A stretch of DNA of 64,000 nt from an uncultured Candidatus Saccharibacteria bacterium (GTDB lineage: Bacteria; Patescibacteriota; Saccharimonadia; Saccharimonadales; CAIOMD01). Shown piece by piece: positions 1,948-16,407 of the stretch. Every line of letters starts with the position of its first letter. The stretch's first letter is position 1. The notes below the pieces were generated by a model. It saw nothing but the letters and a program-made list of their open reading frames with translations, was not told where the DNA came from and did no database searches. The DNA lies in the NCBI GenBank assembly GCA_964566135.1, contig CAZMHM010000005.1:7995-71994 (forward strand), in the 5' to 3' direction. Position numbers and translations under genes: made by a program.

Positions 1948-1949
1948 GC

Positions 1950-3017
1950 TTAGCCTCTCATTAGCCTATCTAGCTCATCTAAATCGACGGCATAATTGCG
2001 AGCTTCGTCATAGGTAATGGTGCCACTATGAATGAGACTAACTAGCGTTTTATCCATGCTCTGCATACCAAACTCAGCACCGGTCTGGATAACTGCATCA
2101 AGCTGGTGACTTTTACCTTCGCGAATAATATTACGTACTGCTGGCGTTGCAACTAAGATTTCGGCGGCAGCTACACGACCACCACCAATTGACGGCACTA
2201 AACGCTGCGATGTAATCGACATAAGAATATTGCTAAGCTGCGCGCGAATTTGCGGCTGCTGGTGCGGTGGAAATACGTCAATCATACGATCAATACTTTG
2301 TGCTGCACTGTTGGTATGTAGTGTCGCAAACACAAGGTGACCGGTTTCGGCAATCGTAATAGCCGCGGCAATAGTTTCGAGATCGCGCATCTCACCAATC
2401 AGTACCACGTCTGGGTCTTGGCGCAAGCTACTACGTAAAGCAGCACTAAAACTAAACGTGTCATAGTGCACTTCGCGCTGCACAATCACACTCTTAACAC
2501 TCTTATGTGTAAATTCAATCGGATCTTCAATCGTAACAATATGTTCGGCTCGCTCGTGGTTAATCTTGTGCACGAGTGCGGCAAGTGTTGTTGACTTACC
2601 CGAACCAGTCGGCCCCGTAACAAGCACAAGGCCACGTGGATAATCGGCAAATTTGTTAACAATCTGTGGCAATCCAAGCTGCTCAATCGTCAAAACTTCG
2701 TTAGGGATAAGACGCAAGGCAGCAGCTAAGTTACCACGCTCGTGGAAGGCGTTTACACGGAATCGCCCTAAATCGCCAAACGCAAAACTAAAGTCAAACT
2801 CTTTGTCTTTAAGCAGAATTTGCTTTTGGTCTTCGTCTAAAATCGCAAATACAAGTGTTTCTATTGCTTCTTCGGTAAGTGCATCTGTGCCACTCACTGG
2901 CTTAAGCGCACCATCGATACGAAGCATTGGCTGCAAACCAACCTGCAAGTGAAGGTCACTCGCTTTCTTTTTAATAACTTCTTCTAGGAGAATTTCTATT
3001 CTTGGTTGTGCTTGCAT
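1950..3017 (-). CDS. pilT: Twitching-motility retraction ATPase PilT
   Basis: 355 aa with Walker A GPTGSGKSTTLAAL, the ATLHTNSAAQSIDR His box and the AAEILVATPAVRNIIRE motif characteristic of PilT. Confidence 0.92.
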   Translation of the reverse strand: MQAQPRIEILLEEVIKKKASDLHLQVGLQPMLRIDGALKPVSGTDALTEEAIETLVFAILDEDQKQILLKDKEFDFSFAFGDLGRFRVNAFHERGNLAAALRLIPNEVLTIEQLGLPQIVNKFADYPRGLVLVTGPTGSGKSTTLAALVHKINHERAEHIVTIEDPIEFTHKSVKSVIVQREVHYDTFSFSAALRSSLRQDPDVVLIGEMRDLETIAAAITIAETGHLVFATLHTNSAAQSIDRMIDVFPPHQQPQIRAQLSNILMSITSQRLVPSIGGGRVAAAEILVATPAVRNIIREGKSHQLDAVIQTGAEFGMQSMDKTLVSLIHSGTITYDEARNYAVDLDELDRLMRG

Positions 3018-3047
3018 ATGTGTCTTTCCACCTTTTTTGAATTCTTG

Positions 3048-4838
3048 TTACGCGTTATCGGACGCTGCCACCCTATTAACTTCTGATAATGTCGTTCTGC
3101 CGGCTAAAGCTTTAAAGTAGCCGTCTTCGCGCATGTTTATCATGCCCTGTTCTTGTGCCTTTGCCTGAATCTCGGCACTTGTTGCTCGTTTGATAATAAG
3201 ATCTTGAATATCTTCTGTGACATTAAAGACTTCATATAAACCAAGCCGCCCCTTATATCCACTTGGATTGCTAGGCGTGGACGTACCCTTAAACAAAGTA
3301 TAAGCGTTTTGGCCGGCTAGTGGCAAGTCGCCATAACCAAAATCTTCTACGGCTGCTTTCTTTTCTTCCTCTGTTTTCGGTAATAAACCGCCAAGGGTTG
3401 CTTCTATTGCGGCGACCTCGGTCTTGCTGGCATCATATTTTTCAGGCTCACCAGCAATACGCCTCACTAGACGCTGACCAATAACGGTACGTACGGTACT
3501 GGCAATCAAAAACGGTTCGATATCCATATCAAGTAAACGTGGCAGAATTCCGGCAGCACTGTTAGTGTGTAGCGTGCTGAGCACAAGGTGTCCGGTAAGC
3601 GCCGCCTGCACCGCTAGCTGGGCCGTTTCTTTATCGCGAATTTCCCCCACCATCACCACGTCGGGGTCTTGGCGTAGAATACTACGCAAACCAGATGCAA
3701 ACGTTAAGCCAACGTCTGCGTTAACCTGAATCTGATTGATGCCGTCCATTTTATATTCAACCGGGTCTTCTAATGTAACAATATTTATCTCATCACTCTT
3801 TATCTCTTGAATAAGTGCGTACAGGCTGGTTGACTTACCAGAACCAGTAGGTCCAGAGGTCAAAATCATACCATTTGAGTTTTTAATGCCTTCGCGTATT
3901 GTACGCAGCGCCCGACCACTATAACCCATATCTTCGAGCTTCAGGCTCGTACCACTCTTATCGAGTAAACGAATAACTACTTGCTCACCCCATACAACTG
4001 GGCTAATGGCGATACGAAGGTCAATGGGTTTTTTGTCTACTAAAATTGTAAACTGGCCATCTTGCGGGATACGGTGCTCATCAATCTTAAGATTGGATAA
4101 AATTTTAATACGACTAACCAAAGGTGGTTCGGTTGCTTTGGGCAACTTCATAATTTCACGTAGCACGCCATCAACACGGCAGCGAATCTTAAGCTCTTTT
4201 TCGAGCGGTTCAATGTGGATGTCACTTGCCCGATTCTTGGCTGCATATTCGAGGATTGTCGAAAGCGCCTTACTAATAGGCGAATCTTGTACGATTGTCT
4301 GGATGTTCTTTTGATCAGACGCCTGACTTGGCTGCTCGCCATCTTTTGGCTTATCGCTATGGTCTCCAAGCGCATCGGCAACGTCTTTACCCACATCAAG
4401 CTGATACTGCTTTAAGACGTTCTCTATGCCCTCTTGGCTCGCCAGAAAGACCTTGAGCGGTCTACCAATACGATTAGCCAAAAAGTCTACCGCCTGCACA
4501 TTGTCTGCGTCAAGCATCGCGACAACCAGACGGTTTTGCATCTCGCCCAGTGGTACCGCCATGTAACGCTCGGCTACTTCTTGTGAAAGAAGTGCTAACA
4601 CCTTAGGGTTTACTCTGGCGTTAGTTAAGTTAACGTATGGTACTTTTGTAACCTGCGCGATTGTTTTGGTTAAGTCTTCGTTAGTTACGTGCCCTTCGCC
4701 GATGAGAAGCGATAAAAATGGCTCGTTATTAGCTGTTGAACGCGCATGCAGTTGCTTAATGTCGGAATCACTAATAAGACCGTTTTTAACAAGTAGTTCC
4801 TCTACTTGTTTCTGGGTATCTGCCAATAGTACGCTCAC
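3048..4838 (-). CDS. pilB: Type IV pilus assembly ATPase PilB (GspE family)
   Basis: 596 aa with an N-terminal GspE-N/MshEN-like domain, Walker A GPTGSGKSTSLYAL, LRQDPDVVMVGEIRD and STLHTNSAAG. Confidence 0.92.
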   Translation of the reverse strand: MSVLLADTQKQVEELLVKNGLISDSDIKQLHARSTANNEPFLSLLIGEGHVTNEDLTKTIAQVTKVPYVNLTNARVNPKVLALLSQEVAERYMAVPLGEMQNRLVVAMLDADNVQAVDFLANRIGRPLKVFLASQEGIENVLKQYQLDVGKDVADALGDHSDKPKDGEQPSQASDQKNIQTIVQDSPISKALSTILEYAAKNRASDIHIEPLEKELKIRCRVDGVLREIMKLPKATEPPLVSRIKILSNLKIDEHRIPQDGQFTILVDKKPIDLRIAISPVVWGEQVVIRLLDKSGTSLKLEDMGYSGRALRTIREGIKNSNGMILTSGPTGSGKSTSLYALIQEIKSDEINIVTLEDPVEYKMDGINQIQVNADVGLTFASGLRSILRQDPDVVMVGEIRDKETAQLAVQAALTGHLVLSTLHTNSAAGILPRLLDMDIEPFLIASTVRTVIGQRLVRRIAGEPEKYDASKTEVAAIEATLGGLLPKTEEEKKAAVEDFGYGDLPLAGQNAYTLFKGTSTPSNPSGYKGRLGLYEVFNVTEDIQDLIIKRATSAEIQAKAQEQGMINMREDGYFKALAGRTTLSEVNRVAASDNA

Positions 4839-4856
4839 GGCTTATGGCTCCAGTGC

Positions 4857-5102
4857 TTAATTACTCTTAAATGGCTGGTTGTTGGTGCTGTCACCAATAG
4901 TAATATTTTTAGTTGGGTTAAGAGAGTTGCTATTAAAGTATGCGGTGTCGGGCTGCTTAAACTCAGCGCTAATTGGCGCAATTGTTGGTGCGGTCAATTT
5001 ATAGGACTTTTGCCCGCCAAACAACGCATTAGCGATGACATAACTAAAGATTCCACTAACTACAGCCACGGCAACGATAATTACTATATCTTTTTGTTTC
5101 AT
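4857..5102 (-). CDS. Small single-pass membrane protein in the pil operon
   Basis: 81 aa with an N-terminal TM helix (IVIIVAVAVVSGIFSYVIANALF). Its start codon shares one nucleotide (5102) with the stop codon of the upstream pilO-like gene. Confidence 0.5.
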   Translation of the reverse strand: MKQKDIVIIVAVAVVSGIFSYVIANALFGGQKSYKLTAPTIAPISAEFKQPDTAYFNSNSLNPTKNITIGDSTNNQPFKSN

Positions 5103-5818
5103 TATTTTGCGCTCCCCGTTGTCTTTGTGGTTGTCGTCTTTTTGGCAGTTGTTTTTCCGTTAGTAACGATAACTTGCTTGATATCAAGTTTTTTCTCTGG
5201 CTGGTAGTACGTCTTAGCATTGACTGCTATCTGTAGATTACTGTCGCTACCAGTAAGATCAAGTGAAGCAATTTTTACCGGACGAATTGATCGTTCCAAA
5301 TCAAGTATGAGCTTCTGAGCAGAGGTAAAGTTCCCCGATGCCCCAATCAGTATCGGAATATCGACAGGCGTCGGTTCGGCACTATCTTGCGAGGCCTGTG
5401 CTTCATTATCTGTCCCACCAATACTGGTGATTTTATTTCCGCTACCACTAATCAGGCCTTCAAGACTTGTCGCAAGTGCTGGAAAGTCATATTTACTTGG
5501 CAATGAATCCAGTACTATCTTTGAGTTTTTGTCTTTTGTGCCGATAACCGACTCAGGCGTGGAATCAAATGTTTGGTAAGCGCTGTTTAGAGTGTCAGCC
5601 GCCTTTACGTTTTTACTTAGCTGCGATGCTGCCTTGCTGCGCAAGCTAATAACTTTGTTTTGATACGACATCCGTTTTAGCAAGGCCTGCGAAGCAACTA
5701 GGCTAAAAATTACTACCGCAGTTGTTATGGCTGCAGCAATTAGTGCTAACGAGTTAGCTTTATCAATTTGAATATGTTTGCCTGATAGACCAAATTTCTT
5801 TGTAAATGAAGATGCCAT
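5102..5818 (-). CDS. pilO: PilO-like pilus alignment protein
   Basis: 238 aa with one TM helix, then a coiled segment, then LDSLPSKYDFPALATSLEGLI, which resembles the PilO core. It lies after pilN and has a Thr/Lys-rich tail. Confidence 0.55.
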   Translation of the reverse strand: MASSFTKKFGLSGKHIQIDKANSLALIAAAITTAVVIFSLVASQALLKRMSYQNKVISLRSKAASQLSKNVKAADTLNSAYQTFDSTPESVIGTKDKNSKIVLDSLPSKYDFPALATSLEGLISGSGNKITSIGGTDNEAQASQDSAEPTPVDIPILIGASGNFTSAQKLILDLERSIRPVKIASLDLTGSDSNLQIAVNAKTYYQPEKKLDIKQVIVTNGKTTAKKTTTTKTTGSAK

Positions 5819-5820
5819 GA

Positions 5821-6510
5821 TTATTGCCCCTGCTGTGTTGTTTGTGGCTGAGCCTTAAATAATGCGTCCGGACTTTCTGTTTCTGACCTGGTAGATGTTA
5901 TCTTTGGTACAACTAGAGTAATTTTCTTGTTTTCGCTGCTAAATATAGCTGGGTCGAACTTTAGCGTGATTGTATAGCTGGCATCTTTGTCGCTTCTCGA
6001 GAAAGTCGTAAGAACAACAGATGAGAACGCAGATTTTTGGTCAGTACCATCATCTATGGTGTACTTAGTAAACTTAAGAGTATCGACAAATTTATTAACA
6101 GACTCTAGTGAATTTGCCGTACCTGTAATTTGTAACGAAGAATCATCATATTTAAGATTCAACGCTGATACCTGCACAGATGTCGGGGTTATCTGAGGCA
6201 AAAATCCAAATATTCTGCTCGTAACAGGCTTGTCGGCGTGTAGTTTCGAAAGTTGATTTAGTTGATTTTGAACCGTTAAAATTTTATCGAGTCCTTCGAC
6301 TTTTTGCAGTGCAGCTGCATTCTTTTTTATCTCACTGTCATAGTGGCTTAATTGTACTTTTTGCACTCCATACACGACGCTTGCAAGAATAGCGAGTATA
6401 CCAAGAGCGGCAGAAGAAATAAGAATTGAGCTTACAAGCACCATTCTTTTAGTACGCTGTGCCTTTATATACTTCGTTTTTACATCTGGTAGTAGGTTTA
6501 ACTGAATCAT
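5821..6510 (-). CDS. pilN: PilN-like pilus alignment protein
   Basis: Starts MIQLNLLPDVK (the INLLP motif of PilN) and has a single TM helix. It overlaps the pilM stop by 4 nt. Confidence 0.65.
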   Translation of the reverse strand: MIQLNLLPDVKTKYIKAQRTKRMVLVSSILISSAALGILAILASVVYGVQKVQLSHYDSEIKKNAAALQKVEGLDKILTVQNQLNQLSKLHADKPVTSRIFGFLPQITPTSVQVSALNLKYDDSSLQITGTANSLESVNKFVDTLKFTKYTIDDGTDQKSAFSSVVLTTFSRSDKDASYTITLKFDPAIFSSENKKITLVVPKITSTRSETESPDALFKAQPQTTQQGQ

Positions 6511-7547
6511 TCGGTACGCTCCGCAAGGCCAGTGGCTACGCCAAAGTGATTAGAAACAGCCAATAGCTCGTTTTGCCTGTCTGTTGGGAACGAAACATTG
6601 CGCCAGGCATTACCAATCTCTACATTGATAGCAAATTTATTAGCTAAGAATAATGGAAATTCGGGGAGTGTTGAGGCGCCACCGGTAACAATAATCCTGT
6701 CAAGCGGTACCGCCGGATAACGTGACTGGAAGAACTTAATTGATTTTTCAATCTCGCCAATAAGAACTTCTACCGTACCAATAATTGCGTTATATATCTG
6801 GCCCTCTAGCTTATCTTTGCTTAGACCAAATTTGTATACAAACTGTTCTGCTTGTTTATCGTCAATGTTTAAATTCTGGATAGCCGCCTTAAGAATAGTA
6901 TCCGTGCCGGTCGGGATTGAACGGGTCAAGCGAGGACCGCCGTTAAGCGAAATAACCAAGTCTGATGCCATACTTCCCATATCAATAACCATTTGCGCAC
7001 CCGTAGCATCACTTGGGATAATTGCGCGAGCCAGCGCTACCGCATCGGGCTCAAACGCAATAACGTTTAAACCAATGCCTTCGAGCATATCCAGGCGTGA
7101 TTCTATAAAGTCATTTGCTACGCTAGACAAAAGTATCTCTACCTTATTAGTGTCTTGTGGTGAATCGCCAAGTAGCGCCCAGTCGATCTTACTTTCGTCT
7201 AGTGGTGTAGGAATAAGTGTATCGGCTTGATAATGAATAGTCTTTTCGAGTTCTGCCTTGCTTAAACGCTCGATATCAACAACAGCAGTAAAAACACGCT
7301 GCGACGGCAAGCCCACTGCAACGTTCCTGGTCGTGACTTTTGACTGTCCCACCAGTTCTTTTATAATGCCTGCTATTTTTTGTTGATCTGCTTTTGCATC
7401 ACTGAGTACTAATTTGCTATCCACCGGTACTAGCGCATATTTGACGAGTGCTTTTACTGGACCACTGCCCCGTAATTGCACTAACCGAATCGCTGATGTA
7501 CCAATGTCTAGACCAAAAAAGTCCGTGACGCCGCTAAGGACGCTCAT
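6507..7547 (-). CDS. pilM: PilM, actin-like ATPase of the pilus alignment complex
   Basis: 346 aa with the actin-fold phosphate motifs GLDIGTSAIRLVQL, DMGSMASDL and IIVTGGAS. It lies upstream of pilN. Confidence 0.88.
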   Translation of the reverse strand: MSVLSGVTDFFGLDIGTSAIRLVQLRGSGPVKALVKYALVPVDSKLVLSDAKADQQKIAGIIKELVGQSKVTTRNVAVGLPSQRVFTAVVDIERLSKAELEKTIHYQADTLIPTPLDESKIDWALLGDSPQDTNKVEILLSSVANDFIESRLDMLEGIGLNVIAFEPDAVALARAIIPSDATGAQMVIDMGSMASDLVISLNGGPRLTRSIPTGTDTILKAAIQNLNIDDKQAEQFVYKFGLSKDKLEGQIYNAIIGTVEVLIGEIEKSIKFFQSRYPAVPLDRIIVTGGASTLPEFPLFLANKFAINVEIGNAWRNVSFPTDRQNELLAVSNHFGVATGLAERTE

Positions 7548-7554
7548 ACCTGTA

Positions 7555-7582
7555 ATTGTAGCATAAGCGTTATGGATAACAA
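7555..7582 (-). promoter_or_regulatory. Candidate promoter with extended -10, placed for a leaderless pilM mRNA
   Basis: Minus strand reads TTGTTA (7582..7577), 16 nt, then TGCTACAAT (7563..7555). Only 7 nt (TACAGGT) follow before the pilM ATG, with no Shine-Dalgarno. Confidence 0.4.
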
Positions 7583-7589
7583 CGTATTT

Positions 7590-10151
7590 TTATAATCGAG
7601 GTGGCATATTAAAGTATGCGTCTGGCTTCGAGCTACTGTCGTCAGGTAAGTTTAACGGCATAAAATTAAGATATGCAGGATAATTGACTACTTCGGCTGG
7701 GTTTGTATTGTCAGTTGCAGGGGCACCAAAACCAGCATAGCTAGTACTTGTATTAGCAAGCAAACGCGTACCTGTTGAACGCATAAAGTGAACATTGCTT
7801 GCATATAACGCCCCGTTGATTATGAGCGTCGATCTACAGCCAGCGGGGCTATCTGATGGTAGGTTATCCCAGTTAGCACGCGCTGGTGATGCGCCATTAC
7901 CACACGTATAAATATCACCGCTTGCAAATAAGACTGCATCAATTCGTTTTACATTAGGGCTAATGTAAATATTTTGCGCCTTTATCAATAGCACTGGAGC
8001 CGTTCCCATAGTCGCAGGCGTAAATGCGTTAGTAGGTATCGCATTGTTGATAATATCACCAGATATTGTCACGCTTCCGCTATCTTTAATGGTAACTTGG
8101 CCACCTAATGTACCCGATATCGAAGCGTTAGTAGTCTTATAATAGCGCTTTCCGGAGGCACTTAGATCTACGCCCGATGTCAGAGCACTTGAGTCGGCGG
8201 GGAATGTAATTGTCTGACTATTGCAAGCACCTGCTACTAATGATGACCAAGTGCTCCTAATCTTATCTCGACTACCGCTCGGATCCTCTGTGTGTAATCC
8301 CGCAAACGTATTACTGCCCAAAGAATTAAAAATTGTCGCAAGACTAGAGAAGGAACCTTTTTTACCGTTGGCAGTATCAAACATAAATTGGCTTGTATCA
8401 CCACTACCGCATACAGAAATATCCTGGCCAAAGAACCGAACAAACGGAACTTCATATACATTTACTGCTACTGGAGCAGCCGGAGTTACCCCTGATGGGC
8501 TAGATGCACTCGCGGTGTAGTTGTAGTTGCCTGGTGCCTTACCATCAAGAGCATTGCCCGTGTTCGCATTTACGGGATGGGTAAATGTTCCACCCGATAC
8601 GCAGGAATCGGTCCATGAGCCATTTGTAAGACCCGAACCATTAGATGTTGACCATACTACAGAACCCGCATAGGTGTTACAATTTAACGTCGCAGTAATA
8701 TTTGCCGCACCTCCCGCACCCTTCTCATATGTAGTGCCGGTAAGCGTTATGCTCGGTGGCACTGGTGGTGGTGTTATTGTTGTACAGTCCTCAGATGGAG
8801 GGTTTAACGTAACGAAGTTTGGGGTTGGGCTAGCACTTAGCAATGTAAGTTTGTAGCATACTGAGGTATCACCTACGGCTGGAGTGTAGGTCTCGCCCGC
8901 CAATGCATAGGTGCCATTGGCATTCACACCATTAAGTGTACTGCTCGAAATATCAGCGTACGCGCCATTGTTAACTTTTCTGGAAACTTTATACGAAACA
9001 GCAAAAGGTGTTGATTGGTAGTTTGTTATAGTGACGCTTTTAGTAAAATTAATCGGATTTGTGCCAACGCTCGTCGCACTTGCAGCAGTAACTTTGGGGG
9101 TTGCAGTGGCGGTAGGATACTGGCAGCCAATGCTGTCAAACGGCATTGAGAATTTAACAGTGTTGTTATCAAATACATTTATATGCTCCCAACGATAATT
9201 GACGCCGCCTGTCATCTTATAAGAGACGATCGATGTTATTCCTGACGCATTCGCTGGATAAAAATCTGTGCCGTTTTTCTCTGTGCCCTTTGACGAAGCC
9301 ACTATCGGAACTAGCTTACCAGTGCTTAAATTCATAAGTCTGACATACCAGGGATTGGGCTGAACATTAACATTGCCATTATCTGGGTCGGATATATAGA
9401 AAGACCTTGTCACAGTCGTACCGTCTGGAACGCTACAATCAGGGCTTATAGGAAATGTAATGTTACCGTAGTCAGTAAATCTACCCTGTGCATCAACCGC
9501 ATATATGTATTTAGACCAGTTTGCCCCGTCACTTTTGTATCCACGGTAGCTTACTAGCGCACTGGGGTTGTTTACAACTACCCTAAATACATTCACATAC
9601 TCAAACCCAACATTTGCACTAGGTCGACCCGAAGCAGTGAAGCCCATCTTCCAGCTATTAGTAGTGTTGTCGAATGGTATGGCTGCCGCCTGTGCCGCAG
9701 TAAGGCTGATTGTTTTCGTGCAAGTTGGGCTTGGCGGATTTGCCGTGGACATATTAACCAATCCTGTGACTTTTTTACTTGAGCTGCCCCAAGTTGCAGT
9801 ATAGTACGTTACTTCCTTCTTGTTGTCTGCGGCAGTAATAGAACTAAAACCTGCGTCGAGAGTATACGGATTTGAAGTAAAGCCCTTTGCATTTGTCTTA
9901 CACATATCTGCATCAATCACATCAATCGTGAATGCTGTCGATGGTTTTGTCTTAAAATATATATCCAGTGTCGATGTTGGGGCCGTAACATCAGTAGAAT
10001 AAGCAGTGACTAGGTAGACACCATTATTAAATGTTTCTTCAGTCTTTGAGTGAGCTTGATTAGAAATTGCTGCATATACAGCAATTTGGTTTCCAAAAAC
10101 TGCAGCAATAAACACAAAAGCTGCTACGAGGCGCGCTAATCTTTTAATCAT
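7590..10151 (-). CDS. Large secreted protein of unknown function (candidate pilus-associated or adhesin protein)
   Basis: 853 aa with signal peptide MIKRLARLVAAFVFIAAVFGNQIAVYA|A. It is Thr/Ser/Asn/Gly-rich with many Cys and has no C-terminal anchor. It is translationally coupled to the upstream gene and lies immediately before pilM. Confidence 0.6.
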   Translation of the reverse strand: MIKRLARLVAAFVFIAAVFGNQIAVYAAISNQAHSKTEETFNNGVYLVTAYSTDVTAPTSTLDIYFKTKPSTAFTIDVIDADMCKTNAKGFTSNPYTLDAGFSSITAADNKKEVTYYTATWGSSSKKVTGLVNMSTANPPSPTCTKTISLTAAQAAAIPFDNTTNSWKMGFTASGRPSANVGFEYVNVFRVVVNNPSALVSYRGYKSDGANWSKYIYAVDAQGRFTDYGNITFPISPDCSVPDGTTVTRSFYISDPDNGNVNVQPNPWYVRLMNLSTGKLVPIVASSKGTEKNGTDFYPANASGITSIVSYKMTGGVNYRWEHINVFDNNTVKFSMPFDSIGCQYPTATATPKVTAASATSVGTNPINFTKSVTITNYQSTPFAVSYKVSRKVNNGAYADISSSTLNGVNANGTYALAGETYTPAVGDTSVCYKLTLLSASPTPNFVTLNPPSEDCTTITPPPVPPSITLTGTTYEKGAGGAANITATLNCNTYAGSVVWSTSNGSGLTNGSWTDSCVSGGTFTHPVNANTGNALDGKAPGNYNYTASASSPSGVTPAAPVAVNVYEVPFVRFFGQDISVCGSGDTSQFMFDTANGKKGSFSSLATIFNSLGSNTFAGLHTEDPSGSRDKIRSTWSSLVAGACNSQTITFPADSSALTSGVDLSASGKRYYKTTNASISGTLGGQVTIKDSGSVTISGDIINNAIPTNAFTPATMGTAPVLLIKAQNIYISPNVKRIDAVLFASGDIYTCGNGASPARANWDNLPSDSPAGCRSTLIINGALYASNVHFMRSTGTRLLANTSTSYAGFGAPATDNTNPAEVVNYPAYLNFMPLNLPDDSSSKPDAYFNMPPRL

Positions 10152-10922: not shown

Positions 10923-12005
10923 ATGAGTTTATCTATCGGAATTGTTGGCTTGCCCAACGTTGGCAAGTCCACCCTGTTTAATGCGTTAACGAACAATAAT
11001 ATTTTGGCCGCGAACTATCCGTTCGCAACAATCGAGCCAAATACAGGCATCGTGCCCGTACCAGACCCACGGCTCGAAAAGCTTGCTGCAGTTTTTGGTA
11101 GCAAAAAAATCTTACCCGCAACAGTAGAATTTACTGATATTGCAGGCCTCGTTGCAGGTGCCAGCGAGGGTGAAGGTTTGGGTAATAAGTTCTTGAGCCA
11201 TATTCGTGAATGCGCGGCTATCGTGCAAGTAGTGCGTGATTTTACCGACCCAAATGTTATCCATGTCGATAACGAGCTTCACCCCGATAATGATATCGAT
11301 GTTATTAACACCGAGCTCGTTCTGGCAGATTTACAGACTATTGATAAGGTACTGCCACGCGTCCAAAAAGAGGCCCGTGCCGATACTAAAAAGAAACCAT
11401 TTGCCGATGCTCTAGCAACTGCGCATGCGCTACTCGATGCGGGCACTCCTATATATAATGACGAAAAACTCCGTACTACGATTGCCGAATATAAAGAGCT
11501 ACAGCTCTTAACTGCAAAACCGATAATTTATTTGTTCAATGTTGATGAAGCGGCCTTAACAGATACAGCAAAGCAAGCCGAGCTTGCAAAACTTGTAGCA
11601 CCAAGTCGGGCCTTATTTGTTAATGCAAAATTAGAAGATGAATTACGAAGTCTAGACGAAGCCGATCGAACCGAGATGCTTCAAGAATACGGCATTACCG
11701 AATCTGGCTTAATTCAGCTCATCCACGCTGCCTACGAAACACTTGGCTTACAAAGTTACCTAACCGCAGGCGAACAAGAAGTTCGCGCCTGGACTATCCC
11801 TACTGGCGCAACTGCCCCACAAGCTGCAGGTGTCATTCATGGCGATTTTGAGCGCGGTTTTATTGCTGCTGACATTGTTGATTATGATGATTTGATTGCG
11901 GCTGGTTCACGCTCAGCTGCTCGGACTGCCGGAAAAATGCGTACCGAAGGCAAAACCTACGTTATGCGGCCTGGTGATGTGGTTGAATTTAAGTTCAACG
12001 TTTAG
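10923..12005 (+). CDS. ychF: Ribosome-binding ATPase YchF (Obg-family GTPase fold)
   Basis: MSLSIGIVGLPNVGKSTLFNALT (G1), DIAGLVAGASEGEGLGN (G3) and a C-terminal TGS-like YVMRPGDVVEFKFNV. Length is 360 aa. Confidence 0.93.
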   Translation: MSLSIGIVGLPNVGKSTLFNALTNNNILAANYPFATIEPNTGIVPVPDPRLEKLAAVFGSKKILPATVEFTDIAGLVAGASEGEGLGNKFLSHIRECAAIVQVVRDFTDPNVIHVDNELHPDNDIDVINTELVLADLQTIDKVLPRVQKEARADTKKKPFADALATAHALLDAGTPIYNDEKLRTTIAEYKELQLLTAKPIIYLFNVDEAALTDTAKQAELAKLVAPSRALFVNAKLEDELRSLDEADRTEMLQEYGITESGLIQLIHAAYETLGLQSYLTAGEQEVRAWTIPTGATAPQAAGVIHGDFERGFIAADIVDYDDLIAAGSRSAARTAGKMRTEGKTYVMRPGDVVEFKFNV

Positions 12006-12074
12006 TTTTACGAGTATCTATCCACAACGTATTTGTAATGAAAGGATAGCCATAAAACTTGTTGAGGCGCCGAG

Positions 12075-12109
12075 GGCGCTCTATCTGCATGGCTTGCAGA
12101 AAGAGCGCC
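12075..12109 (-). terminator. GC-rich hairpin downstream of the first island gene
   Basis: GGCGCTCT (12075..12082) pairs with AGAGCGCC (12102..12109), with an inner CTGCA/TGCAG stem. On the minus strand it is followed after about 15 nt by GTTTTAT, a weak U-tract. Confidence 0.4.
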
Positions 12110-12124
12110 ACTCGGCTTCCCCAG

Positions 12125-13615
12125 CTACTTGACGATGGCGGTGTACGCCGAGAAGGCCTTCCCCTTGTTGTAGTAGGCCTTGACGGCCGTCACCAACAGG
12201 ATGACCCGGTGCTTGCGGTCTGCCTTGACGAGCTTGTAGCTCGACTTGATGGCGCCCTTGATGAGCACGAGCTTGGTACCCACCTTGCGGTACCACTGGT
12301 ACTTGTAGCTCGTGGGCTTGGGCGACCACACGCCGACCGACTTCACCTTGAGGGTGTAGCCGACCTTGGCCTTACCGACGATGGTCGGCTTGACCTTGGC
12401 GACCGGCGCCACGCCGAGCCCCACCTTGACGGTGGCAGTCGACTTGATGACCGCCTGCTGGTAGTTGGCGTCGTACAGCTCGACGTCACAGCGGACGTTC
12501 TTGCCGTACATCGCAGAGGTAAGCACAAGGCTGGACCCGACATGCACTGCGACACCGTTGACACGCCAGATGTAGTACAGCTCGACCGGCAGGCTGGCCG
12601 AAGTGGCGGCGGCCGTGACCGTCAGCTTGGAGCCAACAGCCGCCTTGCCGGACAGCTTCGGGAGAACCGTGTAGACCGGCGCCGTGCAGTTCGGGACAGT
12701 GCCACTCGTAGGCCCGCTGTCGGCGGTCTCGTAGAGAACACCATCGAGATACTGCTCGGCCGTGTAGGTCGAACCGGGCACGAGTCCCGTCGGGTTGATC
12801 GGCTCGGAAACGTACTCGCCAGCGGGGATGTTGGCGGGGCCGTAGACCGTGGTGCCGTTGATCTTCAGCTCGTAGGTGTGCCCACTCGGGTCGAGCGTCG
12901 CATCGATGTTCGCACCGATGATGGGCACGTACTGGTCGCAGAAGACGGACGTCACGTATGCCGACGTACACATGACCGACAGCGTCGCCGAGGTGAGCTC
13001 CGAGTCATCGGAAGCATCCCTGACAGACAGACTGAAGGTCGTGTCGCCCGACTGAGGTGTAAACGACCACGGGACGTCCTGGAACGCCTGCGTGAGCGAG
13101 ATCGGGGCGGACTGGGTAGCGATGCTACCCGGGCCGTTGCCCTGCGTGACGTAGTAGACCGACTTCGGGGTGGCGTAGCCGTTGATTCCCCCGAAAGTTC
13201 CGCTGGTACCGCAGGTCTGACCGCTCGGGTTGGCCTTGACCGTGTTGCAGTCGAAGGCGAACCACTGGTCGTAGTAGACCTCGCCGGTGTCAGCGTTCTT
13301 GACGATCCACTCGTAGGCGATGTCGCCCTGGTTGCTAGCGAACTCCCAGCCACCACCGCCCTGACCGCCGGCCGTGAGCACGACCGGATCAGGGAAGTTG
13401 AAGTGGCCACTGGGGTACTGCACCGTCTCGTTGACGATGTTGAGGTCCGTAGCGGTGTTGTTGACGATGGTCTGGACACCCGGACCCATGCCACACGAGA
13501 CCGTGTTGGTCACCGTGACATCACCGGGTGCTGCACTGGCGGGGGCGCTAACCCCCACCATGATGCCGAGCGCGACGGCGGGTGCCGTCAGCCATGCGAT
13601 GATTCGCCGATTCAT
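12125..13615 (-). CDS. Secreted GC-rich protein with two C-terminal Ig-like repeats (the last one very Lys-rich)
   Basis: 496 aa with signal peptide MNRRIIAWLTAPAVALGIMVGVSAPASA|AP and SD GGAGGT 6 nt before the ATG. Third codon positions are G/C-rich. The C-terminal repeats follow the pattern GKAxVGxxLxV...Y.YxW. Confidence 0.8.
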   Translation of the reverse strand: MNRRIIAWLTAPAVALGIMVGVSAPASAAPGDVTVTNTVSCGMGPGVQTIVNNTATDLNIVNETVQYPSGHFNFPDPVVLTAGGQGGGGWEFASNQGDIAYEWIVKNADTGEVYYDQWFAFDCNTVKANPSGQTCGTSGTFGGINGYATPKSVYYVTQGNGPGSIATQSAPISLTQAFQDVPWSFTPQSGDTTFSLSVRDASDDSELTSATLSVMCTSAYVTSVFCDQYVPIIGANIDATLDPSGHTYELKINGTTVYGPANIPAGEYVSEPINPTGLVPGSTYTAEQYLDGVLYETADSGPTSGTVPNCTAPVYTVLPKLSGKAAVGSKLTVTAAATSASLPVELYYIWRVNGVAVHVGSSLVLTSAMYGKNVRCDVELYDANYQQAVIKSTATVKVGLGVAPVAKVKPTIVGKAKVGYTLKVKSVGVWSPKPTSYKYQWYRKVGTKLVLIKGAIKSSYKLVKADRKHRVILLVTAVKAYYNKGKAFSAYTAIVK

Positions 13616-13714
13616 GACGAACCACCTCCAATCAAGTAGTTGGGTGTTAAGGACTTCGGTCTTTTGGGACCAAAGGTTCCGCTCCCTTCGGTCCCCCGAA
13701 GATTGCTGTGCTAA

Positions 13715-13743
13715 TTTATATCATATTTAAGGTGTTTTGTAAA
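13715..13743 (-). promoter_or_regulatory. Candidate promoter for the 12125..13615 gene
   Basis: Minus strand reads TTTACA (13743..13738), 17 nt, then TGATATAAA (13723..13715), in an AT-rich patch between the two GC-rich genes. Confidence 0.45.
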
Positions 13744-13758
13744 TTATGAGCAGGCATG

Positions 13759-13781
13759 AAAAAAACCTACCAAACGGTAGG
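13759..13781 (-). terminator. Rho-independent terminator of the LPXTG gene
   Basis: The minus-strand RNA reads CCUACC-GUUU-GGUAGG followed by seven U (plus-strand A-run 13759..13765). Confidence 0.75.
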
Positions 13782-13792
13782 CGGATGTGCCC

Positions 13793-13826
13793 GGGTGGGC
13801 GCGTAGTATGTACTACGCGCCCACCC
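13793..13826 (-). repeat. Perfect 16-bp inverted repeat (long GC hairpin) just after the LPXTG gene stop
   Basis: GGGTGGGCGCGTAGTA (13793..13808), then tg, then TACTACGCGCCCACCC (13811..13826). The arms are exact reverse complements. Confidence 0.85.
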
Positions 13827-13839
13827 AGAGCGATGTCGG

Positions 13840-15093
13840 TTACGGGGCCGCGGGGGCCTCGGTACGACGACGCGAGATCAGCATCAGCAGAGTGCCGACA
13901 GCCAGCAGACCAGCGGCGATGGCGAGCTCCTGGGAGCTCACCGCCCCAGTCTGAGGCAGCGTCGACGGCGGGGTCTTGGTCGGCGTCTGCGGCACGGTGC
14001 AGTTGGCGGTGATGGTCTTCTGGGCCAGTTCTTCACCGTTGTACTTCACCGTGATGGTGACCTTCTGACCCACCTTCAGCGGAACCGGAACCGTGATGCT
14101 CTTGCCGAGCGCCACAGTGACGGTCTTCTTGAACCCGATGGACGACGTCACCACGACGGTGACGTTGGTGTCCTCCTGGACGGTCTTCGACGGCAGGTTC
14201 GCGACCGACGTCGTGTTGACGATGGTCGCATAGGCCAGCGGCCCATCCCCGTCCGTGCAGACCGCCTTGCTGATGGCGGCCGTAGCGGTCGGAGGAAGAA
14301 CCTCCGGCCCACACTTCTCGGACGAGAACGTGTCCGTGAGCTCGAGCTGCACCTCACCCTCGAAGAACGCCGTCACCGTGACGGAGACGTTGCCTTCAAA
14401 CGGCAGGATGACCTCCTCGACCTTGCCCGCCTCGACGGACTTCTCGATCTGCTGGCCATCACTGGCCTTCAGGCGATAGAGCACCGTCGCGTTGTGCTGA
14501 GGAGTTGCCTCGCTCATGCTGTTGTCGAGCTGTCCAACGATCGAAGCACCACCCGCCTCACAGATCGAGGTGAGCTGCGCCTTGGGCGAGACCACCGGCT
14601 GCTTGATGCAGCTGGCGGGCGCGTCTTGCGCATAGGTGTTCGGACCCTTGCTCAAATTGCTGACGAACTTGGGCTCGTAGGGCTTGCCCGGCGCCGTCAG
14701 GGTCTTGCTCGGCTGCGGCTCTTCGCCGTAGCCCGCGTAGGCATCGCGCTGGCCGCAGCCAGCGGGTGCAGACACCGTCACGGAGTCACCGGGGTTCTGA
14801 AGCGAACCACGGTTCACACCGCTGAGCGTCTGCGGCCACATCCCCGCGTCGGGGTTGTCGAAGCTGTAGAGCGCGACACCGATGTAGAACTTCTTGCAGA
14901 GCGGCTTCTCGCCGCCGAGGGTGACCTTGACCGTGCCAGTGGTGCCATCCCAGGTGTGGGACAGAACCGCCTTGCTGGCGTCGACGCAGTCGTACTCGCT
15001 TGCGGATGCCGAAGGCACCACCACGAACAGGCTCGCGACGCAGGCAACGACAAGCGCGCCCAGCATCGCAATGAGCCGTTTGATGCGGTCCAT
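13840..15093 (-). CDS. LPXTG cell-wall-anchored surface protein (GC-rich)
   Basis: 417 aa with signal peptide ...LFVVVPSASA|SE. The C-terminus LPQTG + AVSSQELAIAAGLLAVGTLLMLI + SRRR is a canonical sortase sorting signal. Codon usage is G/C-ending. Confidence 0.85.
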   Translation of the reverse strand: MDRIKRLIAMLGALVVACVASLFVVVPSASASEYDCVDASKAVLSHTWDGTTGTVKVTLGGEKPLCKKFYIGVALYSFDNPDAGMWPQTLSGVNRGSLQNPGDSVTVSAPAGCGQRDAYAGYGEEPQPSKTLTAPGKPYEPKFVSNLSKGPNTYAQDAPASCIKQPVVSPKAQLTSICEAGGASIVGQLDNSMSEATPQHNATVLYRLKASDGQQIEKSVEAGKVEEVILPFEGNVSVTVTAFFEGEVQLELTDTFSSEKCGPEVLPPTATAAISKAVCTDGDGPLAYATIVNTTSVANLPSKTVQEDTNVTVVVTSSIGFKKTVTVALGKSITVPVPLKVGQKVTITVKYNGEELAQKTITANCTVPQTPTKTPPSTLPQTGAVSSQELAIAAGLLAVGTLLMLISRRRTEAPAAP

Positions 15094-15206
15094 AGCTGAT
15101 AATCCAATCTCGCGAATTGTGAATGTCGGTGTTACCCGACTTCGGGGATTATCCCCGGTGCTCCCTCATCACCCTCACACAGTGACGAGTGACAAAAGCA
15201 ATACAT

Positions 15207-15236
15207 ATTATAGCATAAATTATACTAATTTGTCAA
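15207..15236 (-). promoter_or_regulatory. Candidate promoter for the LPXTG gene
   Basis: Minus strand reads TTGACA (15236..15231), 18 nt, then TGCTATAAT (15215..15207). It begins 4 nt after the stop of the upstream native gene and leaves a leader of about 105 nt. Confidence 0.5.
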
Positions 15237-15239
15237 TTA

Positions 15240-15794
15240 CTAACCCCTAAAGAATTCTATAATTCGAGCACCAAAGCGTCTCGTGTTTGTGGTATTCTTT
15301 TTTTCGTAAAAAGATACCAATCGCTCTTGGAAAATACTAGTATATTCATCAGCACTGATTGGCCGAAGGTCTTCGACATGTCGTTCGAGCATACCAAGTT
15401 TATACGGATCTATAACTGGAATAGCTGGACTAATCACTGGTGCCGGTACGGTATACCGTACAACGGTACGCATCTGCAGATTATCGGTACCAAGTGGCAC
15501 CATTAGCCGCATTTCATCAGATAATGCAGCGCCAAACCGCGCTTTTAGCGGGTTCCATGTATCAGGGATAAATGTATATTGTTCGCCTGCTACCAGGTCT
15601 TCAATGTACACTTTGGCACAATTGCCTGCTGGGGTCGCTACAATAGCATGCGGCAAGCCAAGTTGATGAGGATTTGGTGGCTGAATTAAGTCCTGTTGTT
15701 TTGCGCGACGCACTGCATCGCCAATACCAATCACAATATTCATAACCGCATCATGATTTTTAGCTTCTACGAGTGGTAGCTGATCGATAGACAT
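15240..15794 (-). CDS. Hypothetical protein
   Basis: 184-aa ORF with native AT-leaning composition. I recognised no motif. Confidence 0.5.
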   Translation of the reverse strand: MSIDQLPLVEAKNHDAVMNIVIGIGDAVRRAKQQDLIQPPNPHQLGLPHAIVATPAGNCAKVYIEDLVAGEQYTFIPDTWNPLKARFGAALSDEMRLMVPLGTDNLQMRTVVRYTVPAPVISPAIPVIDPYKLGMLERHVEDLRPISADEYTSIFQERLVSFYEKKNTTNTRRFGARIIEFFRG

Positions 15795-15843
15795 AGTACG
15801 TACTATCTAATGTACTACTAGAACATAAAATGTAAATGCGTAT

Positions 15844-16407
15844 CTATTGCCTGCTAACAAAGGCGGCCGTTACGGCATTGCCCAGTTTCTTAAGCGGACC
15901 ACGATTGTTTCTCTTTGAGATTGCCCTGCTTTCGGCTTCGGTAAGCGTTGCACCGGGTACTAGAGGCATTGCTTCTGCCTGCAGAACACCCATTGGTAGA
16001 AAGCCTCTATCGCGCTCAATCTCAGCCACGATGAACTCACTTCGCCTTGCTTCACTAACGGGTGTGGCAGCTGACAAGTTACCATTTAATTGGTAGATTT
16101 TATCGAGGGGTGTTTTTTGAGTGACTTCATCGACACCGCTGTCCCATACGATACCATTAGCATCAATAACATAACGAACGGTTCGCCCGGTTACTTTATC
16201 GATTACTGTTTCAGGACCCTTTTCGCCGGTGTACCCGCTCAGCGAATAAACCTGACCGTCATTGCTCTCAACAAGCGCAGGTGCACCCGGCTCGTCGCTC
16301 TTGAATCCTTGTTCGAATATTTTGGCAGTAACAGTACTGCTAAGATTTGCTACTGCAGATTCGTATGGTTGATTGTCACTATTTGGATTTGTTTGTTTTA
16401 TAGCCAT
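15844..16407 (-). CDS. Hypothetical protein
   Basis: 187-aa ORF with no TM segment or signal peptide. It is preceded by the stereotyped promoter at 16414..16442. Confidence 0.5.
   Translation of the reverse strand: MAIKQTNPNSDNQPYESAVANLSSTVTAKIFEQGFKSDEPGAPALVESNDGQVYSLSGYTGEKGPETVIDKVTGRTVRYVIDANGIVWDSGVDEVTQKTPLDKIYQLNGNLSAATPVSEARRSEFIVAEIERDRGFLPMGVLQAEAMPLVPGATLTEAESRAISKRNNRGPLKKLGNAVTAAFVSRQ

Follow-up and report, generated by a model that had tools for sequence, protein, structure and literature searches.

Stem-loops in the 5' leaders of Lactobacillus slpA and B. subtilis aprE stabilise the mRNAs of these abundant surface-layer and exoprotein genes. To our knowledge, a GC-enriched, hyper-structured coding body is undescribed for systems of this type. 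Such genes share a strong promoter, a long structured 5' UTR and strong 3' hairpins with the locus described here, which lies between ychF and tlyA, but its leaders have no sequence or Rfam relationship with them. The combination of a basic wall-binding module and a variable exposed part, known from surface-layer systems, is also predicted for one of its products.

Compositionally atypical genomic islands reportedly ameliorate over time, as modelled by Lawrence and Ochman. Actinobacterial LAxTG/LPxTG wall proteins, such as P0015 (from a contig of 75% GC) and P0025 (GCA_965193075.1), have a Cys-containing N-terminal beta-sandwich domain that is also found in the LPQTG protein of the locus, and share with it a signal peptide, conserved Cys/CGQxDxY motifs in the N-domain, a C-terminal sortase signal and GC-ending codons. 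However, only the N-domain is common to them (E ~1e-20 to 1e-41), and the actinobacterial genes belong to uniformly high-GC genomes and have no excess mRNA structure, whereas the gene described here belongs to a 45% GC genome, in which it occupies a conserved locus with native AT-rich signals.

Pam pili of Saccharimonadia/CPR are built of secreted Ig-like surface proteins, which are implicated in host contact and are among the most abundant proteins (bioRxiv 10.64898/2026.03.03.709456). The Pam pilin has a nine-strand beta-sandwich and a truncated Ig domain, pilins are joined by donor-strand exchange with membrane-anchored chaperones, and the pam operon, which contains the PamC/D chaperones, is found in an ATP-synthase gene neighbourhood (bioRxiv 10.64898/2026.03.03.709456). 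The proteins of the present locus are likewise secreted Ig-like surface proteins of a CPR lineage, but they lie between ychF and tlyA and carry either a sortase signal or a basic module at the C-terminus, which sets them apart from the described pilins. A GC-rich patch in an epibiont genome is easily taken for newly acquired host DNA, and the hosts of uncultured CPR bacteria are guessed from patches of this kind.

Composition and layout of the two GC-rich genes

In the window, which is the whole 64-kb stretch of DNA analysed, GC is 61-63% across 12.05-15.15 kb and 40-50% in the remainder. The 1-kb windows of 12001-15000 have GC contents of 0.609, 0.614 and 0.634, against 0.396-0.500 in all other kilobases, and in 100-nt windows GC climbs between 12000 and 12150 and drops between 15100 and 15250. 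An earlier note on this DNA had described the GC-rich patch, which these values and the GC3 of the open reading frames (ORFs) confirm, and had placed the two coding sequences at exactly the coordinates found here. The features of the locus are:

12063..12123, minus strand: very stable 3' stem-loop that directly follows the stop of the 496-aa gene, by folding
12125..13615, minus strand: coding sequence of a 496-aa secreted protein, by ORF and translation; GC3 0.86
13616..13714, minus strand: structured 5' leader of the 496-aa gene, hairpins followed by a GGAGGTG Shine-Dalgarno
13715..13743, minus strand: promoter of the 496-aa gene, TTTACA, 17 nt, TGaTATAAA, read from the sequence
13758..13831, minus strand: 3' end of the LPQTG gene, stem of ~20 bp including a 16-bp perfect inverted repeat, then an intrinsic terminator hairpin and U-run
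13840..15093, minus strand: coding sequence of a 417-aa sortase-type surface protein (LPQTG gene), by ORF and Pfam/TIGRFAM matches; GC3 0.85
15094..15200, minus strand: three-hairpin 5' leader of the LPQTG gene, P1 (loop GURUGAG), then P2 and P3
15207..15236, minus strand: extended sigma-70 promoter of the LPQTG gene, TTGACA, 18 nt, TGcTATAAT, 12/12 matches

The GC3 values of both genes compare with 0.32-0.54 in the 62 other ORFs compared, and their GC1 and GC2 are raised only slightly. In the spacer between them (13650-13800) GC dips to 0.41-0.42 in 100-nt windows, and both promoter regions are AT-rich. The anomaly in composition is genuine and does not extend beyond the two coding sequences, and GC-richness is a property of each coding sequence and not of the whole block. 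What had been called one island is therefore GC-rich as stated but not continuous, being two GC-rich coding sequences parted by an AT-rich spacer. Long Arg/Gly/Asp-rich shadow ORFs, which had also been mentioned, are present on the opposite strand at 12059..13639 (526 aa) and 14494..15099 (201 aa).

There are no tRNA genes within the 64-kb window, no direct repeats in the flanks other than short chance repeats at the borders, and none of the ORFs between 10 and 17.5 kb resembles an integrase, in agreement with the bare borders seen before. The sharp contrast of GC and codon usage with the flanks resembles that of classical genomic islands, but these mobility genes, tRNAs and repeats are missing, and the contrast is set per coding sequence, is shared by every relative sampled and persists although synonymous divergence is saturated.

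Predicted surface proteins and conserved RNA signals

The 417-aa protein begins with MDRIKR, a hydrophobic core and PSASA followed by SE, a predicted signal peptide read straight from the sequence, and ends with LPQTG, then AVSSQELAIAAGLLAVGTLLMLIS, then RRR. It matches PF00746 with 25.1 bits (cut-off 20) and TIGR01167 with 22.4 bits (cut-off 15.9); the earlier note had already recognised the sorting signal. Its AF2 model (mean pLDDT 86.3) has a helix at residues 2-20 and predicted domains at about 35-165, 170-260 and 270-365, for which Foldseek against the PDB gave generic tandem FnIII/Ig matches only. In this model three beta-sandwich domains follow the signal peptide, and the LPQTG motif comes before a TM helix and the final RRR. 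A search for ORFs with a TLxTC-type sortase signature gave none, either in the 64-kb window or at loci L003, L004 and L007.

The 496-aa protein has a signal peptide (SAPASA followed by AP at the N-terminus, as noted earlier), an acidic variable N-terminal part with a segment pI of 4.1-5.0 and a very basic C-terminal Ig-like module of pI 10.0-10.3, whose Ig-like Pfam matches are weak. Its final 90 aa contain 22 K/R against 1 D/E. The C-terminal module, for which non-covalent binding to the cell wall is likely, is common to the homologues in L001, L003, L007 and L010, and a similar GC-rich gene of 311 aa is found at the corresponding position in L013. Both products can be regarded as exported cell-surface proteins from their N-terminal signal peptides, one of them with a sorting signal, which is how they had been described.

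Promoters and 5' leaders alike are rich in AT, look native and are conserved as far as the start codon. The LPQTG-gene promoter is kept at the orthologous loci, and L003 keeps the -35/-10 arrangement of the 496-aa-gene promoter. Hairpins P1, P2 and P3 form in all seven lineages with different stem sequences and compensatory stem changes, and the folding z of the three-hairpin leader is -2.6 to -4.2. Within the window the P1 motif is found a single time, as it is at each Saccharibacteria locus, and its position is invariably upstream of the LPQTG gene. An Rfam 15 scan of 11900-15900 (E up to 5) gave no family match for the leader, and this conserved RNA appears to be so far undescribed; the sole match of that scan, HgcF on the terminator region, is spurious, since its 16 bits fall far below the gathering score of 70. 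The leader of the 496-aa gene (MFE -35.2 kcal/mol, z -2.65) is conserved with L003.

Both genes are also followed by very stable hairpins. The 93-nt region 13750-13842, which contains both LPQTG-gene 3' hairpins, folds with -50.2 kcal/mol (z -7.1), and giant 3' hairpins of differing sequence are found after the LPQTG orthologues in L001, L003, L004 and L007. The 98-nt region 12030-12127, with the 3' stem-loop of the 496-aa gene, folds with -46.1 kcal/mol (z -6.3 against dinucleotide shuffles), and an equivalent hairpin follows its L003 orthologue.

The coding bodies are structured as well. Full-length MFE is 7-11% more stable than that of dinucleotide-preserving synonymous shuffles in 8/8 GC-rich genes (z -3.0 to -8.7), and in a 100-nt local folding test the two genes of the window rank 2nd and 5th among 60 ORFs. 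Excess coding structure is also found in RNase J (z -5.3) and in PNPase and PilB (about -2.5). Actinobacteria-like codon usage had been attributed to both genes, and the codon table bears this out. A-ending codons are nearly missing, and GAG (0.88), CAG (0.97) and TTC (0.90) dominate, but the shift is codon-specific, as GGT (0.32) and CGT (0.31) stay near the background and GGG reaches only 0.16.

The locus in other Saccharibacteria

Homologues were found at the tlyA-ychF locus of six other lineages (L001, L003, L004/5, L007-9, L010 and L013/14), in which the surface genes have a GC3 of 0.72-0.91 and the neighbouring genes one of 0.19-0.49. Only seven lineages were sampled, of which L007 and L013 are closely related, and every recovered related locus carries the gene, the loci having been retrieved by searching with the protein itself, so that genomes without it could not surface. 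L003, from a MAG titled 'uncultured Candidatus Saccharibacteria', is syntenic with the window (EF-P 89%, YchF 83% and TlyA 79% identical), which agrees with the Saccharibacteria-type genome first suspected. In L001 and L003 low-GC genes stand between the two GC-rich genes.

Four-fold-site identity between lineages is 0.21-0.49 in housekeeping genes, with 0.26-0.35 expected, and 0.38-0.54 in the LPXTG genes, with 0.33-0.40 expected; these synonymous sites are nearly saturated. GC3 of the surface genes is correlated with that of the resident genome (Spearman 0.88, p 0.008; second gene, Pearson 0.90, p 0.015). Both genes are fast-evolving, with 30-63% amino acid identity against 75-90% for YchF and EF-P. 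Their domain-wise identities are mosaic, with 74% in the C domain and 26% in the N domain between L013 and L007, so inheritance was not strictly vertical and some exchange took place between lineages.

Neither 5.8 billion clusters nor 1.84 billion representatives (about 15 billion proteins) yielded a close homologue from outside the clade. A word-indexed search matched nothing but the query and a single homologue from Saccharibacteria. In an exhaustive profile search the top full-length matches also include P0006 and P0009, and those whose contigs were examined (P0002, P0004, P0005, P0136 of the P0007 cluster, and P0008) are in Saccharibacteria loci; the best matches outside the clade cover the N-domain alone (E ~1e-23). 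Genuine actinobacterial proteins share only this N-terminal domain and are LAxTG/LPxTG proteins on contigs of uniformly 67% and 75% GC. The actinobacterial connection of the family noted earlier thus stands, and since the N-terminal domain alone recurs in genuine Actinobacteria, an ancient actinobacterial ancestry is suggested by the sequences.

Probable origin and maintenance of the GC-rich composition

Taken as a whole, these observations are probably best explained by an ancient, conserved and persistently GC-rich envelope locus under mRNA-level selection. It would be a cell-envelope locus of a Saccharibacteria clade, lying between ychF and tlyA, with two separately transcribed genes, the first for a wall-anchored LPxTG/LAxTG protein of three beta-sandwich domains and the second for a secreted protein that varies in its acidic N-terminal part and conserves a very basic, Ig-like module at its C-terminus. 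The family would have been inherited, with its domains reshuffled, within Saccharibacteria since an ancient arrival, probably from Actinobacteria, and its extreme GC-ending codon usage would be maintained actively in each lineage and not be left over from transfer. Each gene has its own promoter, a multi-hairpin leader beginning near the predicted 5' end of the transcript, an A/U-poor and unusually base-paired coding body and a large 3' hairpin. This combination may shield the transcript from endonucleases and from the exonucleases that attack its 5' end (RNase J) and its 3' end (PNPase), so that abundant coat or adhesin proteins would be made from long-lived messages. We infer selection for such long-lived, highly structured mRNAs as the reason for the GC-richness. 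It is a more tentative idea that the hyper-base-paired GC-rich mRNA, three-hairpin leader and giant 3' hairpin form an undescribed post-transcriptional expression device of wall-anchored coat or adhesin genes, maintained by selection, whose messages are very long-lived or unlocked by host contact; this might be tied to a supply of GC-rich nucleotides scavenged from the host or to escape from the RNases of the cell itself.

From these data, a strong anomaly of codon composition can outlast a complete turnover of synonymous sites, an outcome not predicted by the neutral model of amelioration, and its persistence suggests that selection acts on the nucleotide composition or the mRNA structure of particular genes. 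If selection-maintained composition islands exist, GC-rich CPR genes are unreliable markers of host-to-epibiont transfer. The conserved, hypervariable and probably highly expressed surface locus is a predicted candidate for host recognition in the clade. As some Saccharibacteria are now genetically tractable (PMC10633639), these hypotheses are testable.

An unlikely alternative is that the locus is a hot spot at which cassettes are replaced recurrently: each lineage would keep importing alleles of unsampled high-GC donors through homologous recombination in the conserved flanks, and its genes would always be young. The mosaic domains and donor-like codon usage are consistent with it, and a preprint (bioRxiv 10.1101/2023.05.02.539146) describes Saccharibacteria as naturally competent. 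However, all placeable close relatives are in Saccharibacteria loci and none in a high-GC context, GC3 of the surface genes follows the resident genome, as does their use of GGT and CGT, and the excess mRNA structure is absent from the homologue P0015 and three other genes of genuine Actinobacteria (z +0.5 to -1.0 in the same shuffle test).

GC-biased gene conversion, in which frequent recombination at a diversifying surface-antigen locus fixes AT-to-GC changes without selection on RNA, would fit the signs of intragenic recombination or domain swapping and the fast evolution of both genes, and is nevertheless quite improbable. The GC shift ends at start and stop codons, skips the low-GC genes in between in L001 and L003 and is codon-specific, GGT being kept while GGG stays rare. 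We know of no bacterial gene-conversion effect near the GC3 offset of about +0.45 seen here, which far exceeds those reported. Ordinary translational selection, by which the most highly expressed genes use the optimal codons of the organism, is very doubtful: the perfect promoter of the LPQTG gene and a codon bias that is extreme and consistent across lineages agree with it, but S6, SSB and EF-P of five lineages do not share the lean in GAG (0.17), CAG (0.30) and TTC (0.23).

The earlier note had preferred a recent import of a block of actinobacterial host DNA that is not yet ameliorated, which we consider highly improbable, although GC and GC3 far exceed those of the flanks, codon usage is Actinobacteria-like, and the sorting signal and N-domain are common to actinobacterial proteins. 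When the ychF-tlyA interval is compared, equally GC-rich genes are found at the same locus of the six other, deeply diverged low-GC lineages, the very pattern that the note had named as refuting its view, so the description as recent and un-ameliorated fails. The spacer, the promoters and the leaders are rich in AT, and Saccharibacteria have conserved them. The borders bear no trace of mobility, and the protein searches produced no close homologue of a recent host donor. An assembly chimera of epibiont and host contigs, which an abrupt composition change in a metagenome-derived genome could indicate, is excluded for practical purposes, because the same low-GC/high-GC/low-GC junctions recur in independent assemblies (the NCBI MAG, JGI 3300045993, 3300045825, 3300048833 and 3300048930, and several Logan runs), and each gene is fused to a conserved native promoter and leader.

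Composition and organization of the two GC-rich genes

The three kilobases between 12001 and 15000 have GC contents of 0.609, 0.614 and 0.634, while every other kilobase of the window lies between 0.396 and 0.500, so the GC-rich patch described in the earlier note was borne out by the 1-kb and 100-nt profiles and by third-codon-position GC (GC3). At 100-nt resolution, the GC content climbs between 12000 and 12150 and drops between 15100 and 15250, and it falls to 0.41-0.42 at 13650-13800, which is the AT-rich spacer between the two genes. The patch is therefore not a single island, it is two transcription units, each GC-rich on its own. GC3 is 0.86 in the 496-aa gene and 0.85 in the 417-aa gene versus 0.32-0.54 in the 62 other ORFs compared, and the first and second codon positions of both genes show only a modest rise. 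Both coding sequences stand at the positions first read, and the elements of the locus are as follows.

12125..13615, minus strand: ORF of the 496-aa secreted protein
promoter of the 496-aa gene, minus strand: TTTACA, 17 nt, TGaTATAAA, plus its own leader (recognized by sequence)
13840..15093, minus strand: ORF of the 417-aa LPQTG protein
15094-15200, minus strand: three-hairpin 5' leader of the LPQTG gene
15236..15207, minus strand: promoter of the LPQTG gene, TTGACA, 18 nt, TGcTATAAT (12 of 12 consensus positions, extended -10)

The LPQTG gene is followed by a perfect 16-bp inverted repeat and an intrinsic terminator. The borders are free of mobility features, as had been noted: the searches of the window returned no tRNA, no direct repeats flanking the GC-rich genes and, between 10 and 17.5 kb, no integrase-like ORF. 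An overlapping antisense gene was dismissed, since the antisense ORF is the expected shadow of high GC3.

The interval between tlyA and ychF is variable, and lineage-specific small low-GC genes occupy 15240-16407 (minus strand) in the window and the matching intervals of the homologous loci L001, L003, L004, L007 and L010. The window ORF W_184 is 49% identical to L003_177, a homologue of W_187 was undetected in the other loci, and L001, L004, L007 and L010 carry different small genes. These small flanking proteins have no Pfam or NCBIfam match. About 2 kb from the GC-rich genes is a type IV pilus cluster (739-10151, minus strand) that comprises PilC, a PilT-like ORF, PilB and a PilM-like ORF. 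After it come genes for an 853-aa secreted protein that evolves fast (30% identical to L007_881) and for a membrane protein of 224 aa; GC3 is ordinary throughout all of these genes.

Relatives, age and ancestry

Exact look-ups of both proteins and of P0001 gave no match, nor did a metagenome contig scan with protein alignment. In a word-indexed search of 5.8 billion clusters, the LPQTG protein matched nothing but itself and a JGI protein of 44% identity, and the 496-aa protein had one weak match; with a 13-sequence profile the search returned just two proteins. Exhaustive profile searching across 1.84 billion representatives yielded 132 matches at E up to 1e-3. The contig of the JGI protein, L001, is syntenic with the window and carries efp, tlyA, a GC-rich gene for a 593-aa secreted protein, two small low-GC genes, a GC-rich LADTG homologue, a low-GC gene and a convergent ychF. 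L003, the sole locus from the GTDB scan, belongs to a MAG titled "uncultured Candidatus Saccharibacteria" and has the gene order of the window, with a low-GC 195-aa gene separating the LPQTG homologue (61% identical) from the homologue of the 496-aa protein. The best traceable full-length matches of the profile search, P0008 (L004/L005), P0136 (L007-L009) and P0004 (L013/L014), all lie in the FtsK-S6-SSB-S18-EFP-TlyA ... YchF neighbourhood, and P0005 is on a shorter contig (L010) that ends in ychF.

GC3 of the homologue is 0.72-0.91 in each of the seven lineages, versus 0.19-0.49 in the neighbouring housekeeping and small genes, and the homologue is accompanied by a second GC-rich secreted-protein gene, which is a different gene in L004. 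A third GC-rich secreted-protein gene (GC3 0.82), with a Pro/Thr-rich linker, is found in L004 at 12623-13480 on the plus strand, at the far side of ychF, where the window has low-GC genes, so the set of GC-rich surface genes varies by lineage.

An assembly chimera of host and epibiont is ruled out, since the same junctions are present in NCBI, JGI and Logan assemblies made independently. The recent, un-ameliorated transfer of actinobacterial DNA proposed from the sequence is refuted by the equally GC-rich homologues at the same locus in low-GC relatives, and the locus lacks four of the five tested features of a recent genomic island. The age of the feature was addressed by third-position identity between lineages at four-fold sites of conserved residues. 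This identity is 0.21-0.49 in ychF, efp and tlyA versus 0.26-0.35 expected from codon usage, and 0.38-0.54 in the LPXTG genes versus 0.33-0.40 expected. Synonymous sites are essentially saturated in both gene sets, save for some residual signal between the window and L003. Across such divergence, a neutral foreign gene would be expected to drift towards a GC3 of about 0.4. Surface-gene GC3 instead tracks the GC3 of the resident genome with an offset of about +0.45; the correlation is 0.88 (Spearman, p 0.008) for the LPXTG gene over seven lineages and 0.90 (Pearson, p 0.015) for the second gene over six, the lineages being not fully independent in either case. Such tracking is the pattern expected of an in-place mutation-selection balance. 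The GC-richness is very probably a conserved, old and actively maintained feature, neither a recent transfer nor a chimera. The recent-import explanation falls, and a testable phenomenon of anti-amelioration replaces it.

Nearly all of the 105 representatives matched by an N-terminal-domain HMM end in LAxTG or LPxTG. Two matches that could be placed are genuine Actinobacteria: P0015, on a 75% GC contig, adjoins acyl-CoA dehydrogenase-like and GMC oxidoreductase genes, and P0025 (NCBI assembly GCA_965193075.1) is on a uniformly 67% GC contig. The actinobacterial homologues share only the N-terminal domain, at E of about 1e-20 to 1e-41, which makes an old acquisition from Actinobacteria plausible and a recent one not. 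An ultimately actinobacterial ancestry is somewhat favoured, and the composite of an old, maintained surface locus, this ancestry and a proposed selection on the mRNA is judged probable.

More distant LAxTG homologues, P0013 and P0010, are found at L006 1757-2992 and L011 3295-4233, on contigs of roughly 55% GC. Their GC3 is 0.75-0.81 versus 0.54-0.64 in their neighbours, and the DNA upstream of them is AT-rich and encodes hairpin leaders. The phenomenon as a whole may thus reach past this clade.

Codon bias, mRNA structure and flanking hairpins

A-ending codons have nearly gone from the GC-rich genes (AAA 0.02, CAA 0.03; CCA, GTA, TTA, ATA and CTA 0) and two-fold pyrimidine codons strongly favour C (ATC 0.97, TTC 0.90), while GGT (0.32) and CGT (0.31) remain near the genome background (0.44 and 0.35). 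Orthologues in other lineages have the same codon table. Being codon-specific and not a uniform push towards GC, the bias speaks against plain GC-biased conversion. Ordinary translational selection was rejected because S6, SSB and EF-P of five lineages do not have the bias (GAG 0.17, CAG 0.30, TTC 0.23).

The minimum free energy of each full-length coding sequence was compared with that of shuffles in which protein, codon usage and all dinucleotide counts stay fixed. The gain in stability over these shuffles is 7-11% in six GC-rich genes of Saccharibacteria (z -3.7 to -8.7), and the homologues on L006 and L011 also have excess structure (z -4.4 and -3.0). The z values are +0.5 to -1.0 in four genuine actinobacterial genes, P0015 among them, and +0.9 to -2.7 in low-GC neighbours. 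In a local 100-nt test of 60 ORFs, the two genes rank second and fifth (z -4.25 and -3.30; background mean -0.96, sd 1.39). The excess is not confined to GC-rich genes, since RNase J has a z of -5.3 and PNPase, PilB and a 419-aa ORF have about -2.5 to -2.8.

Three matching hairpins (P1, P2 and P3) form in the LPXTG-gene leader of all seven lineages, with folding z values of -2.6 to -4.2. Copies of the leader outside the window are at these positions.

L001 7050-7154
L003 9900-10000
L004 9900-10000
L007 9893-10000
L010 about 1470-1570
L013 about 5895-6000

The leaders, whose P3 is not alignable by MAFFT, were compared by per-sequence folding and motif search. The P2 and P3 stems covary freely, with six distinct sequence versions of each, and P1 carries an invariant GURUGAG loop ahead of a GGGAG-like element. 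A single copy of the P1 motif is present in the window and in each Saccharibacteria locus, in every case upstream of the LPXTG gene, and it is retained even where the N-terminal domain of the protein has been swapped. The leader matches no Rfam family, a DNA pattern scan of metagenome contigs with the promoter and P1 leader gave unrelated chance matches only (STAS-domain genes, a pheS leader), and no description of this leader in Saccharibacteria was found in the literature. It may represent a novel cis-regulatory or mRNA-stabilising motif.

A very stable stem-loop directly follows the stop codon of each gene; the regions that contain these stem-loops fold at -46 and -50 kcal/mol in the window (z -6.3 and -7.1) and at -52 to -61 kcal/mol in the orthologues (z -4.7 to -10.1), whose sequences differ. 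Behind the stem-loops of the LPXTG genes comes a further, small hairpin, which has a U-run in the window copy. Hairpins that resemble these giant 3' ones, long, GC-rich and followed by a terminator, also separate the LPXTG promoter from the GC-rich gene upstream of it at L007 9700-9860, L010 1280-1440 and L013 5713-5860.

In combination, the separate promoter of each gene, the hairpins close to the 5' end of the transcript, the A/U-poor, highly paired body and the giant 3' hairpin would fit a design for a long-lived and heavily expressed mRNA. Maintenance by selection on mRNA structure or stability is proposed only tentatively. RNase J and PNPase are encoded in the window. The RNase J gene (23202-25274, minus strand) has the top structure excess of the low-GC genes (local z -5.6; full-length 7.9% stabler than shuffles) and that of the PNPase gene (25905-28025) is also raised, which may reflect autoregulation via mRNA structure.

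Encoded surface proteins and known systems

Both N-termini look like Sec signal peptides, as first read. The C-terminus of the 417-aa protein, with LPQTG, a hydrophobic stretch and RRR, scores above the curated cut-offs of PF00746 and TIGR01167, and by its sequence the protein satisfies the definition of a sortase substrate; no sortase was found within the 64-kb window. Its AlphaFold2 model, from a 25-sequence alignment (mean pLDDT 86.3), has three beta-sandwich domains at about 35-165, 170-260 and 270-365, and then the sorting signal. Foldseek against the PDB matched this model to generic tandem FnIII/Ig arrays only, and the only PDB match by sequence profile was to the LPXTG tail. Domain identities of the LPXTG proteins are mosaic (L013 and L007 share 74% in the C domain and 26% in the N domain), which indicates domain exchange among Saccharibacteria, as expected of an exposed, diversifying surface protein.

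A single-sequence AlphaFold2 model of the 496-aa protein was of too low confidence for a fold search (pLDDT 33.7). Family members are found in the window, L001, L003, L007 and L010, and L013 has a similar 311-aa gene. The N-terminal part is variable and acidic (pI 4.1-5.0), and the conserved C-terminal Ig-like module is extremely basic: its final 90 residues contain 17-22 K/R and 0-1 D/E. Through this basic module, the family would bind anionic wall polymers non-covalently.

The closest functional analogies include the actinobacterial LAxTG proteins and the S-layer or exoprotein genes with stabilising leaders. Pam pili of Saccharimonadia, recently described (bioRxiv 10.64898/2026.03.03.709456), are a further analogy, but they have, by the published description, a different locus and a different assembly logic. 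Literature searches turned up neither persistently GC-rich surface-protein genes nor sortase substrates described for Saccharibacteria.

Elsewhere in the window, a CrtI-family phytoene desaturase-like gene is found at 57052-58527 on the minus strand, with an NCBIfam CrtID match at E 1.9e-182 whose 607 bits narrowly miss the cut-off of 640 bits. A desaturase of the carotenoid type comes as a surprise in a reduced genome like that of Saccharibacteria.
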